Below, piece after piece: positions 8,020-63,267 of a stretch of 64,000 nt of DNA. The notes below the pieces were generated by a model that saw nothing but the letters and a program-made list of their open reading frames with translations, was not told where the DNA came from and did not search any database. The translations under genes and the position numbers were made by a program. Origin of the DNA: Escherichia coli phage vB_EcoS_Ace; the sequence record MT833283.1. One strand, written 5' to 3'. Numbering within the stretch: position 1 is the first letter of the stretch; every line of letters begins with the position of its first letter.

Positions 8020-8048
8020 ATTATACCAATATATACGGGAGAAAGCAA
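8020..8048 (-). promoter_or_regulatory. Early promoter TTGCTT-N17-TATAAT driving phoH-nrdA
   Basis: Reverse strand TTGCTT, 17-nt spacer, TATAAT in the divergent intergenic region. Confidence 0.55.
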
Positions 8049-10214: not shown

Positions 10215-10243
10215 TTGCTTTCTAGCTAAAACTTATGTATAAT
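10215..10243 (+). promoter_or_regulatory. Early promoter TTGCTT-N17-TATAAT with conserved ATAAATTTGAGAGGAG leader
   Basis: Hexamers and spacing read directly; leader motif shared with the PN25-like promoter at 16663. Confidence 0.6.
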
Positions 10244-16662: not shown

Positions 16663-16691
16663 TTGCTTTTAGGAAAATTTTTCTGTATAAT
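16663..16691 (+). promoter_or_regulatory. Phage T5 PN25-type early promoter
   Basis: Recalled PN25 sequence (pQE-vector T5 promoter) TTTATTTGCTTT.AGGAAAATTTTTCTGTATAATAGATTCATAAATTTGAGAGAGGAG matches except one position in the spacer. Confidence 0.85.
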
Positions 16692-17703: not shown

Positions 17704-17732
17704 TTGCTTAATCCTGTAATTCTTGATATAAT
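17704..17732 (+). promoter_or_regulatory. Early promoter TTGCTT-N17-TATAAT
   Basis: Hexamers and spacing read directly. Confidence 0.55.
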
Positions 17733-18920: not shown

Positions 18921-18949
18921 TTGCTTTCGACTCAGTTTTCATATATAAT
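18921..18949 (+). promoter_or_regulatory. Early promoter TTGCTT-N17-TATAAT with ATAAATTGATGAGAGGA leader
   Basis: Hexamers and spacing read directly. Confidence 0.55.
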
Positions 18950-57172: not shown

Positions 57173-58386
57173 TCTTTATCCCCATCGGTAGTGCCTTGCG
57201 GTCTACCACCTTCTTGACCAGATATACCTGTTGCAGAACCAGCAACGTTAGCAGGAATACGAATCTTATTCATCTGCTCATCATCTAAAGGTTCAAGGTT
57301 AAGCTCTTCACGAGCTTCGTTACCAGTCATGATACCGTTATTAACCAAAGAGGTTAAATGTTTAGCCTCAGCTTCTTTATCTGGCGTCAGTGCAGCTACT
57401 TCCTTAGTATTAGGAGTAACCTTGTAGCCAAAGAAGAAAGTAAGAGAACTAGTCAGCTTGTTCAGCATAGGAATGATAGTCATGTAATAGAACAATTCGA
57501 TGTTTGGTCGAATGTTAGCATTATTACCACCATCAAGTAACACTTGCGGAACACCAAAGGCAAGACAGATGGATTTATTAAATCCTTCGATATCTTCCTT
57601 GAAGTCTAGATCTTTAAAAGAGGATATTTGGGAGTACGGTTTTGCTTTCATACCACCATCTAGAATAAGGACAGTAGACTGACCCGTACTAGGATTATAA
57701 TCGAGTTGTAATTCTTCTTGTTTACGCTCACGCAATTTCTTGTTCAGGATTTCATCCGTCTCAAGAATAAGACCAATCACTGTGCCGTTATCGAGGAACT
57801 TCTCTTTAAAGTTAAGCATTTTAGAACGCTTCTCAAGAGAGTCAATAACTGTAGCAACACGAGATTGTCCAGAAATTTGGGAGTTTGTGCCACACACGTA
57901 ACTGTTATCCTTTATAAAGATAATCTCATCTACGCGATAGTCTATCTGGTTATTAAATATGAATTTTTTGATAAACTTATTGGCATCTGCCTCTACTTGC
58001 ATTAGTGCAGCAGGGACATGGTAAAGTGCTGTGCCATCCCAATAGATGTATGCACAACCCTCAAAAAGTAGGTCAGTGACTACAAGTCTACGGAATGTGC
58101 TTATATCCATGAATGGATTAGGTCGTACATTTAAGAGAGTGTCTAGAGTCTTTGCCTTGACGCCATTAGCGTACGTGACAATATTATATTTATCTCCGAC
58201 AGTATAAGAACACTCCGCCGCACTATCGATAACCATGTTAGCAGTTCGGTTGAGAATCTCAATCTTACTGTAGGCTTGTCCAGTGGTAAATGGCTTACGG
58301 TTAGTGCGATGACTAACTGGTTCCATGTCTCTTATAATACGTTGACCCGGATTTAGCTTTTCAGTAATCCAGCTTTTTAAACCCAT
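57169..58386 (-). CDS. Portal protein (pb7-like)
   Basis: 405 aa, between the terminase/HNH and decoration/protease genes; acidic Gly-rich C-terminus. Confidence 0.7.
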   Translation of the reverse strand: MGLKSWITEKLNPGQRIIRDMEPVSHRTNRKPFTTGQAYSKIEILNRTANMVIDSAAECSYTVGDKYNIVTYANGVKAKTLDTLLNVRPNPFMDISTFRRLVVTDLLFEGCAYIYWDGTALYHVPAALMQVEADANKFIKKFIFNNQIDYRVDEIIFIKDNSYVCGTNSQISGQSRVATVIDSLEKRSKMLNFKEKFLDNGTVIGLILETDEILNKKLRERKQEELQLDYNPSTGQSTVLILDGGMKAKPYSQISSFKDLDFKEDIEGFNKSICLAFGVPQVLLDGGNNANIRPNIELFYYMTIIPMLNKLTSSLTFFFGYKVTPNTKEVAALTPDKEAEAKHLTSLVNNGIMTGNEAREELNLEPLDDEQMNKIRIPANVAGSATGISGQEGGRPQGTTDGDKE

Positions 58387-58910
58387 TATAAGAACCTTGC
58401 GAATCCTGATTTAGTTTCAGTCTTGACTTGTGTCTTTTCTTGAGGATTCTGTAGCTTTTCCTTTTGTTTAAGAACCCATGCCTTCTGCTTATTAGCAGAG
58501 AAAAGGGGAGGTTCTTTAGTGTACACCTTATGTAATAGTTGGTGATGGTGGACACAAAGGGTAACAGTGTCATCTACTAGCTCATGCCTATATCTTTCAT
58601 AGAATGCCGTCCTATTTGAGAGGACTGTTTCTTCGTCAGTGAAATCCAATTGGAGTTCTTTAGCAAATTTTTTAACTAGTAGAGACACTGTATGGTAATG
58701 ATGAAGCTCTAATTCTTCACCACAACCACAGATTTCGCAGCGATCGGCTTTTTTATATTGACTTTTTATACCGTCTCGCATGAGTGATATAGCATCACGT
58801 TTATATTTTACATTTCCTGCCACAGTATTCTCCTCAACTGTATGAATATAGTATACATAATCATGTCGAATTTGTAAAGGGGATTTTAAAATGCAGGAAT
58901 GGGATACCAA
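58386..58910 (-). CDS. HNH endonuclease
   Basis: 174 aa; CEICGCGEELELHHYH ... CVHHHQLLH (Cys pairs with HH/H-N-H spacing). Confidence 0.7.
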   Translation of the reverse strand: MVSHSCILKSPLQIRHDYVYYIHTVEENTVAGNVKYKRDAISLMRDGIKSQYKKADRCEICGCGEELELHHYHTVSLLVKKFAKELQLDFTDEETVLSNRTAFYERYRHELVDDTVTLCVHHHQLLHKVYTKEPPLFSANKQKAWVLKQKEKLQNPQEKTQVKTETKSGFARFL

Positions 58911-60746: not shown

Positions 60747-62528
60747 TTAGGTTAGGCGTTGAACTGTTACACGTAGTCTTGGTAAGAAGATAGCAGCTGC
60801 TTCTGCAGCATGGATAATAACACCCAACTCAACGTTGCCATTACCAAGGTTTTTAATAGTATAAATATAACCATTCCTTCTAAAAATCATACTATCTGGT
60901 CGGCTCGCCCATTCCTGTGTATAACTATATGCTGTAGTACTATGATATGGTACTAGATATCCTGGAGGCAATGTTAGTATTTGATGAAATATACCATCAC
61001 CAGCAGTATAACTTTGTTGCCGTCTACCTTGTACCTGCCAAGCACTACCTCCGTAAGTACGCACAGGCATTCCAGCAGTATTAATATTACCCATAATAAC
61101 TTCAGTGGTTAGTATAATAGTAGAATGAGCATTAGGCAGACCCAACCATACAGTAGCTAAAGGCTGATAATAGTTGCCTGCCGCTGGGTAAGATGGATTT
61201 ATATCATCCCCAACATAAGTACTAGCAACGTTACCAGGGAATAATCGTAGTGGAACTGTAGAGGGACTCCAAACTGGACCATGTTCATTTCCTATGGAAT
61301 TACTATTAGTATCTACATACCATTGTTTACCTGCACCAAACTTATATAAACTAATCTGAGAGGCAGCACCCCCATAGTTAACTGGAGACCATAATCCACC
61401 ATTGCTAGAGCCAATGAATTCACATCGCGCAGTAGTATCCCCAAAAACCCCAGTATACGCAGCATTATTACCTATATATTCCATATCTGAACGATAACCT
61501 AGATTACCAAAGGCATTCTGATTAATAAATTTATAACCAGAGTTAGGTAAACTTACCCCTTTAATAGTAAAGTTAGATGGAGAGATAAGGATATCAGAAC
61601 CAGTAAATGGATTACCAGAAACCACCATATTACCATTAGAGTAACGTAGGTTTAAAACATACCAGATAACCTTAGTAGGTGTAATATTATACCAGTCCTG
61701 AATATAAACAGTGTTAACAGACTGAGAACCCATATTACTAGCCGAACCTCTACAGGTATATAGATAAGGAAAAGTAGGGGAGGAATAGATATGATTTACA
61801 TTTGCCGGTATTTCTTTTTTCTTACCTATATAGCTGCGAATATTTGAGTTACATACGTAGAAATGATCATGACCTCTACCGGCAGAACCAATAGGTGCCT
61901 GCCAGTTAGGATCCCAATAGTTTAAATCTCCGGCATTTATAGGTACATTAATAGTTCCTCTAGGAAATCCAAGCATTTCATATGCTCTGGCAACCGCTTC
62001 CCCTACCGGAACACCCCCAGGTCTCACTATACCCACATCTGATGATTGTATAATTGTTCCGCCAGTACCTTGTCTGGCTATAGACTCTTCATGTCCTAAT
62101 CCACTATTATAAATATAAGTACCGTGTGCTAGGCTATCGCCGATTGCAAAAGCAGAACTTAAGCCTACTTGAGCGAATGCTCTAAAACCTGGATCCTCCG
62201 CAAGAGTTAAATAGCTACCAACCTGAGATTGAGTACCATTGAGGAATCCTCTATGGGTACCATTAATCTCAATAGCAGTTAATATAACTCTACCCGGATC
62301 ATTGGATTTAATATTTATAATATCCCAAGGCATCTGAGTAACAAAGTATCCATTACCTGCATTACCTAGAGCCGCTTCATAAGTCCCATCAACCAGGACG
62401 AAAGGCATATCTGAGTGAAAGATACTATTAGTATTTGGAGAGTAGTGTTCACCAGTATCACCACCATTAGCAGCGTTTAGCGATAATACAGTTTTACCAT
62501 CACTAAATTTTCCTGCGAAAAAACTCAT
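60747..62528 (-). CDS. Receptor-binding tail protein candidate (pb5-like)
   Basis: 593 aa, Gly/Asn/Tyr-rich beta-type protein, divergently adjacent to the llp-like lipoprotein gene as in T5 (oad-llp); by position and composition only. Confidence 0.5.
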
Positions 62529-62552
62529 ACAATCTCCTTCTTTAAAAATGTA

Positions 62553-62581
62553 TTTGCTTAGATCCCTCTATTTTGCTATAA
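62553..62581 (+). promoter_or_regulatory. Early promoter TTGCTT-N17-TATAAT upstream of llp
   Basis: Read directly; followed by ATAAATTAAACAGAGGAAC leader and ATG at 62612. Confidence 0.55.
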
Positions 62582-62611
62582 TATATTTATAAATTAAACA
62601 GAGGAACGATT

Positions 62612-62878
62612 ATGAAAAAGTTACTAGCTATCGTAGTTGCAGCAGTAGTGTTGACGGGTTGTGTACCAGCTCCCGAGCCATTTTGTAAGGCATATGTGAA
62701 GTCTTATGGTCATGTTGGTGAAGAACACTATGCTTTAGATATTCGAGAAGCACGTACTGTGGGCTACCGATTCCCTAAAACTCAGTTACGCACTAAGTTT
62801 GGGTGGTGGGATTTGTCACAGTTTGATCTCAAATATGGCGATTGCAAATTTAAACTAGAACAATCTGGTCACTTGTAA
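62612..62878 (+). CDS. llp: Lytic-conversion lipoprotein (Llp-like)
   Basis: 88 aa; signal peptide with lipobox (MKKLLAIVVAAVVLTGC), small mature domain with two more Cys; divergent from the pb5-like gene. Confidence 0.65.
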   Translation: MKKLLAIVVAAVVLTGCVPAPEPFCKAYVKSYGHVGEEHYALDIREARTVGYRFPKTQLRTKFGWWDLSQFDLKYGDCKFKLEQSGHL

Positions 62879-62952: not shown

Positions 62953-63267
62953 ATGCAAGATGAAGAAAAGTCCTTTCAGGAACCTGTTAACTTTGAAATA
63001 GATCCCAGGACTAAAGCAATACATGATGCAATTAACGAAATCATTCAAGACGTCATAGAAGATACAATAGAAGACGTGATGGGAACATCCTTCTTAATAG
63101 AAGAATCCGGCTTCGATGAAGTAATGGATCTTATCGGGACAGTCATAATGGTTCGTGCAATTGCTAGGATATTCCAAATACCAGGACTACAGGAGAAGCA
63201 AAGAGATGTCAGACGACAACAGAAGAAAGAACAGACGCGGGGAAGTGTACGAAAGTTGGATAAATAG
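62953..63267 (+). CDS. Hypothetical protein (104 aa)
   Basis: Acidic N-terminal half, basic C-terminus. Confidence 0.4.
   Translation: MQDEEKSFQEPVNFEIDPRTKAIHDAINEIIQDVIEDTIEDVMGTSFLIEESGFDEVMDLIGTVIMVRAIARIFQIPGLQEKQRDVRRQQKKEQTRGSVRKLDK

Follow-up and report, generated by a model that had tools for sequence, protein, structure and literature searches.

Background

Phage BF23 reportedly carries, in the hrs (oad)-llp pair described by Mondigler et al. 2006, genes for a BtuB-binding receptor-binding protein (RBP) and a BtuB-blocking lipoprotein (Llp). The T5 counterpart, oad (pb5)-llp, is represented by solved structures (8A8C, 8B14, 8A60 and 7QJF), and its receptor is FhuA, not BtuB. T5 pb5 inserts loops L1 and L2 into FhuA (Gln115, Phe170), and T5 Llp is a lipidated, periplasmic protein with a Cys11-Cys58 disulfide that binds the FhuA plug in a non-native state, with EL7 and EL8 folding inward over the pb5 site; the same mechanism was proposed by the authors for other TonB-dependent transporters (PMC9586334). 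BtuB dependence has been described for BF23, SPC35, DT57C, EPS7 and phiR2-01 (PMC10644984; PMC8624392), and the RBPs of the subfamily form three clusters that predict the use of BtuB, FepA or FhuA (PMC8594841). BF23 Llp was shown experimentally to be a BtuB-blocking lipoprotein, and DT57C Llp, which is one substitution away from it, reduces the plating of BF23-type phages more than 100-fold while leaving T5 unaffected (PMC4728585). The RBP-llp module is already known, both generally (BF23, 2006) and for the exact proteins described here (BASEL, 2021).

Results

Gene anatomy and promoter of the locus

The window is the whole stretch of DNA analysed, 64,000 nucleotides of Escherichia coli phage vB_EcoS_Ace (MT833283.1), a phage of the genus Epseptimavirus (Demerecviridae, Markadamsvirinae). 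Near its right end lie two divergent open reading frames (ORFs) separated by an 83-bp spacer, and both are found at exactly the coordinates given here in the program-made ORF list. The features of the locus are as follows.

60747..62528, minus strand: RBP gene, 593 aa, ATG start (ORF list)
60800..62240, minus strand: predicted recombination patch in the RBP gene, ~aa 96-575, most diverged at aa 96-280 (DNA and protein comparison with chee130_1)
62534..62539, minus strand: RBP ribosome-binding site AAGGAG, 5 nt before the ATG (read from the sequence)
62554..62582, plus strand: llp T5-type early promoter, -35 TTGCTT, 17-nt spacer, -10 TATAAT (exact motif and conservation)
62601..62604, plus strand: llp ribosome-binding site GAGG, 7 nt before the ATG (read from the sequence)
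62612..62662, plus strand: signal peptide of the lipoprotein, aa 1-16, carrying the lipobox L-T-G-C; the mature protein is predicted to begin at Cys17, which would be lipidated (sequence)
62612..62878, plus strand: llp gene, 88-aa precursor (ORF list)

The promoter is flanked by an A-tract upstream and by ATAAATT downstream. The window has eight exact copies of TTGCTT-N17-TATAAT where shuffles predict 0.04, a 200-fold over-representation, so the motif is no chance match; the A-rich upstream tract is common to all eight copies, and an ATAAATT-like downstream stretch to most. The llp promoter stands at the same position in T5, BF23, SPC35 and HildyBeyeler, as well as in phiR2-01, where the -10 element is TATACT, and its alignment holds column by column even between phages whose flanking genes no longer resemble each other at the DNA level. 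The T5 record has a promoter annotated at the equivalent position. On the strength of this over-representation, the shared flanks and the conservation across phages, we consider the predicted promoter sound, and llp is predicted to be expressed early from its own promoter, divergently from the RBP gene. A generic sigma-70 scan of the window did not list the llp promoter, because TTGCTT fits TTGACA at three of six positions and falls under the per-hexamer threshold of the scan, and it returned sites no more numerous than in shuffles. T5 early promoters have TTGCTT as their -35 element, and for this reason the generic scan is uninformative here.

The other seven exact copies lie at 34-62, 1440-1468 and 8020-8048 on the minus strand and at 10215-10243, 16663-16691, 17704-17732 and 18921-18949 on the plus strand; the copy at 16663 is presumably the counterpart of the classic T5 PN25. 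Jointly these seven trace the early transcription units of the window.

The RBP gene is the promoter-proximal first gene of a minus-strand structural block of ~27 kb, directly upstream of terS and terL, which are followed by an HNH-like ORF, the portal gene, and then capsid and tail genes. The order terL-terS-RBP, followed by divergent llp, small ORFs and the terminal repeat, is the same in the window, T5 and BF23. Before any database search, a sequence-only reading of this DNA had described an 88-aa lipoprotein precursor with an LTGC lipobox, transcribed from an early TTGCTT-N17-TATAAT promoter and divergent from a 593-aa tail protein, as a mirror of T5 llp-oad. The genes, signal peptide, lipobox and promoter were all recovered, and the likeness to T5 holds in synteny, in the early promoter and in the homology of the RBP to pb5 (see below). 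That reading had also placed the 593-aa gene at the end of the late operon, and in this it was mistaken; the gene is the first of the leftward block and is last in window coordinates only.

Between terL and portal, at 58386-58910 on the minus strand, is a 174-aa ORF with a TTG start and a Cys/His-rich HNH-like motif (CEICG...HHYH...HHH). A 'nicking endonuclease' is annotated at the matching position of the BF23 record, and the ORF may be tied to the site-specific nicks of T5-like genomes.

The receptor-binding protein

The 593-aa protein matches phrog_4815, 'receptor binding tail protein', with an E-value of 1.1e-268 (residues 1-593 against profile positions 1-650). A sequence search of the PDB with it matched T5 pb5 alone (8a8c_B and 8b14_B, E ~6e-46, aligned over aa 1-156 and 273-593) and included no BtuB-type RBP structure. 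T5 pb5 is 640 aa long and 33% identical to the window RBP, whose aa 157-272 are not alignable to it. Neither Pfam nor NCBIfam has a family above threshold for the RBP or for Llp, and T5 pb5 and T5 Llp likewise lack a Pfam family; the silence of these libraries reflects the fact that they do not cover the module. Global identities of the window RBP to RBPs with assigned receptors are listed below.

chee130_1 (common Epseptimavirus allele), BtuB cluster: 86%
SPC35, BtuB: 80%
BF23 Hrs, BtuB: 73%
HildyBeyeler, BtuB cluster: 73%
phiR2-01, BtuB: 60%
H8, FepA: 34%
T5, FhuA: 33%

A tblastn search with the RBP showed a gap in identity from 59% (phiR2-01) down to 28-35% (H8, S124 and S131), and homologues of pb5 of any type were found in 538 phage records. 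By sequence the protein groups with the BtuB-type RBPs of BF23, SPC35, EPS7, DT57C, phiR2-01 and S126, apart from the FhuA and FepA clusters. We therefore assign it, as a prediction from these comparisons, to the pb5/Oad/Hrs family as a full-length tail-tip receptor-binding protein with a BtuB-type allele. The sequence-only reading had supposed that the shorter protein recognizes a receptor different from that of T5, and had proposed comparing it with FhuA-, BtuB- and FepA-type RBPs; that comparison sets 60-86% identity to the BtuB type against 33-34% to the other two types, and the RBP and Llp identities, together with the Bas26 table entry discussed below, point to BtuB. Its assumption that the protein is related to receptor-binding proteins at all is borne out by the full-length phrog_4815 match and by 8a8c_B.

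The lipoprotein

The llp product starts MKKLLAIVVAAVVLTGC, with a KK n-region, a hydrophobic core, the L-T-G-C lipobox, and Val instead of Asp at position +2. It thus shows the lipoprotein signal pattern MKKLLAIVVAAVVL-TGC-V with no Asp at +2. Against Pfam LPAM_1 it scored 18.6 bits (E 0.0025), just under the cut-off of 20. In an alignment of 11 homologues G16 and C17 are invariant, as are two further cysteines of the family, C25 and C78. The protein matches phrog_1119 (E 1.2e-23). Aligned without gaps over 88 aa, it shares 68% of its residues with BF23 Llp; its identity to the SPC35 protein is 69% and to phiR2-01 g145 65%. BF23 Llp has the stretch QLRTKFGWWDLSQFDLKYGDCKFKLEQS unchanged, and residues 57-85 are almost identical in the two. 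At least 99% identity is found in 133 phage records, and more than 100 of them carry the identical protein. An AF2 model (pLDDT 82.7) has five strands and a C-terminal helix; Foldseek of this model against the PDB returned nothing significant, and a phmmer search of the PDB with Llp, which included no BtuB-type Llp structure, gave no match at E<=10. From these identities the 88-aa protein is predicted to be a BF23/BtuB-type receptor-blocking lipoprotein, acting in lytic conversion or superinfection exclusion.

Homologues of Llp were found in 397 phage records, and the BtuB-type RBP segment aa 91-270 likewise in 397, as totals compared; the organism and host breakdowns of the two sets are near-identical. 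The genes for Llp and the BtuB-type RBP thus appear to travel together.

The BF23 module (OR083247) has the gene order, orientation and promoter of the window. Its proteins are 595 and 88 aa long versus 593 and 88 in the window, although BF23 belongs to the genus Tequintavirus and the window phage to Epseptimavirus. The two RBPs differ most at aa 150-270, and the two Llps differ in the N-terminal half whereas the C-terminal half is nearly identical.

Close relatives and their annotation

The 2,132-bp region of the two genes matches 239 T5-like records in total. It is 99.7-99.8% identical at the DNA level to five phages: Escherichia phage GreteKellenberger (BASEL Bas26, MZ501072) and Salmonella phages vB_SenS-AKM_ECS, vB_SenS-AKM_HA2021_32, SLAM_phiST45 and RA40. 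Across vB_SenS-AKM_ECS, SLAM_phiST45, RA40, MSP1, Sw2 and Bas26 the DNA identity of the locus is 98.5-99.8%. The best record for the last 24 kb of the window is RA40 at 98.4%, which makes the window phage closely related to catalogued phages without being one of them. GreteKellenberger shows essentially no difference at the locus; its bas26_0209 and bas26_0208 products are both 100% identical to the window RBP and Llp and are annotated as 'receptor-binding tail tip protein' and 'superinfection exclusion protein'. Near-identical relatives are annotated in the same sense (receptor-binding protein; superinfection exclusion or receptor-blocking protein).

In the supplementary table of the BASEL study the terminal receptor given for Bas26 is BtuB, and the main text of the study states that some Markadamsvirinae receptors were predicted from RBP clustering (PMC8594841). 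Since some receptors were assigned in that way, the BtuB entry for Bas26 is possibly a prediction and not a measurement.

The RBP gene is mislabelled in PP948674 (SLAM_phiST45), MG387042 (SP3), KY677846 (phiLLS) and NC_106513 (ESCO30), where the labels across these records are 'terminase small subunit', 'receptor-blocking protein' or 'super-infection exclusion protein'. MG065642 (Campylobacter phage A148) and OR849067 (Listeria phage LM 4-14-1) contain a BtuB-type RBP at 84% and ~50% identity, respectively, and their host names are likely due to mislabelling or contamination.

A recombination patch in the RBP gene

Compared with chee130_1, DNA identity is 93-100% in terS, in the first ~95 RBP codons, in the intergenic spacer, in llp and in the DNA downstream, versus 63-93% at ~60800-62240. 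At the protein level, in bins of 30 aa, identity is lowest (53-83%) at aa 91-270. Only 14 records have this segment at 95% identity or more, and among the matches listed the next best reaches 73%. The segment overlaps the part of the protein that aligns with the T5 pb5 loops L1 and L2. As judged from these profiles, intragenic recombination swapped most of the RBP gene, and llp stayed identical to the common allele.

Such a patch raises the possibility that the architecture was kept but the RBP tip allele (aa 96-280) came to recognize a different outer-membrane protein, leaving a non-cognate BtuB-type Llp beside it. The tip segment would suit this explanation, as it reaches 66-73% identity at best to alleles outside the 14-record clade and came by intragenic recombination next to an llp 100% identical to the common allele. 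However, the whole RBP remains 60-86% identical to BtuB binders, against 33-34% to the FhuA and FepA types, Bas26 with its identical RBP is tabulated under BtuB (PMC8594841), and the preservation of llp at 100% identity argues for a partner that is still cognate. DT57C and BF23 are related by a like intragenic exchange with llp unchanged; their RBPs, as different in the tip segment as those compared here and strongly different in the first 200 aa, nevertheless both use BtuB (PMC4728585). By analogy with DT57C and BF23, we read the patch as one that probably retained BtuB use; a change of receptor specificity through the patch is highly improbable, and a module with a switched tip and a non-cognate Llp is given correspondingly little weight.

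Relation of Llp to T5 Llp and Cor

The Llps of T5 and BF23 have been called non-homologous (PMC10644984). T5 Llp is 77 aa long versus 88 for window Llp, and their global identity is 21%. Both match phrog_1119 over the full length (E 1.1e-19 for T5 Llp and 1.2e-23 for window Llp), and both keep a cysteine soon after the lipidated one and another near the C-terminus, C25 and C78 of the window family corresponding to the Cys11-Cys58 pair of T5 Llp. A profile-profile comparison of BtuB-type and T5-type Llps with hhalign aligned residues 1-29 only, that is, the signal peptide and the first cysteine, and homology of the mature domains therefore does not follow from sequence alone. Distant homology between the two types is plausible but unproven.

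The Cor proteins of phi80, N15 and T1-like phages are, like Llp, small lipoproteins of the outer membrane that block a TonB-dependent transporter, but they act on FhuA, unlike BtuB-type Llp. Llp was considered as a Cor equivalog and rejected, with 13.7 bits against a cut-off of 31 for the NCBIfam model. PHROGs names the family of Llp 'Cor superinfection exclusion protein', and Llp carries this label in many records even though the NCBIfam Cor model is not reached; in those records 'Cor' is a family name and not an assignment of function.

Pairing in other phages

No lipobox ORF of at least 25 aa was found within ~1.2 kb beside the RBP gene in the FepA-type phages H8 (L005 1-1250) and S124 (L010 1-1250) or in the Klebsiella Sugarlandvirus JIPh_Kp127 (L011 1-980). 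The neighbouring ORFs of S124 and JIPh_Kp127 were rejected as members of the T5-type Llp alignment, as they are not lipoproteins. The S124 gene labelled 'receptor blocking protein; T5 Llp-like' is a homologue of the window ORF at 62953..63267 (104 aa, phrog_16810, unknown function), which makes the label a positional one.

For Citrobacter phage Cit2, an RBP 96.9% identical to T5 pb5 was reported, from which FhuA use and a 'decoupled' BtuB-type Llp were inferred (PMC12980165, 2026). Such a case, if it held, would have weakened the rule that RBP and Llp are paired. In the deposited genome (OP745948; L013 358-2115) the RBP is 30% identical to T5 pb5 versus 68% to the window RBP. On these values we rejected Cit2 as a combination of FhuA-type RBP and BtuB-type Llp; it looks like an ordinary BtuB-type pair.

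Discussion

We consider it highly probable (about 0.93) that the window carries a T5-like Epseptimavirus host-recognition module composed of a BtuB-binding tail tip and an early BtuB-blocking lipoprotein. What we observed here is the layout of the genes, the promoter, the homologies, the cluster membership and the synteny; that a phage with the same two proteins depends on BtuB, and that the BF23 and DT57C Llps act in exclusion, comes from the literature.

In the mechanism that we propose, the RBP, carried on the tip of the straight central fibre, would bind BtuB, the outer-membrane vitamin B12 transporter, irreversibly, leading to DNA ejection. The llp gene would then be transcribed early from its own strong T5-type promoter. 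After export and lipidation at Cys17, Llp would be delivered to the inner leaflet of the outer membrane, and by binding BtuB there it would render the transporter unusable for further phage, which would exclude superinfection and spare progeny from loss on the debris of lysed cells. The PDB copy searched holds no structure of a BtuB-type RBP or Llp, and for that reason we infer the inactivation of BtuB by the lipoprotein from the FhuA case. The most likely mode, carried over from FhuA-Llp across a pair of Llps with 21% identity, would be periplasmic plug-jamming, in which Llp sits on the periplasmic face and plug of BtuB and the extracellular loops are allosterically refolded.

Less probable even than a switched tip is another envelope role for Llp, as an outer-membrane spanin-like lysis component or a generic moron whose adjacency to the RBP gene is incidental; the lack of a Pfam or NCBIfam family above threshold and of a significant sequence match to solved structures would fit it, but the protein is 68% identical to BF23 Llp, from a family with shown exclusion activity, its promoter is early and not late, it co-occurs with the BtuB-type RBP in an equal number of records, and its position is that of T5 llp.

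More speculatively, and at slightly worse than even odds, BtuB-type Llp may belong with FhuA-type Llp/Cor to a single ancient family, in which a disulfide-clamped small SH3-like barrel was retargeted to the plugs of different TonB-dependent transporters; separately, under the same reservation, the rare RBP tip allele (aa 96-280, 14 records) might contact other BtuB loops than the common allele does, with the unchanged Llp still protecting. If Llp and Cor do form one such family, the two types would be homologous, contrary to the published description ('non-homologous'), and plug-jamming as described for FhuA would apply to BtuB as well.

Conclusions

The locus is an ordinary T5-like host-recognition module, and the significance of the BtuB reading is mainly one of correct annotation. 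The module governs the choice of host cell and the exclusion, or not, of related phages from a cell already infected. It is relevant to the design of phage cocktails because, when several phages depend on BtuB, the resistant mutants that they select are the same and each phage shuts out the others.
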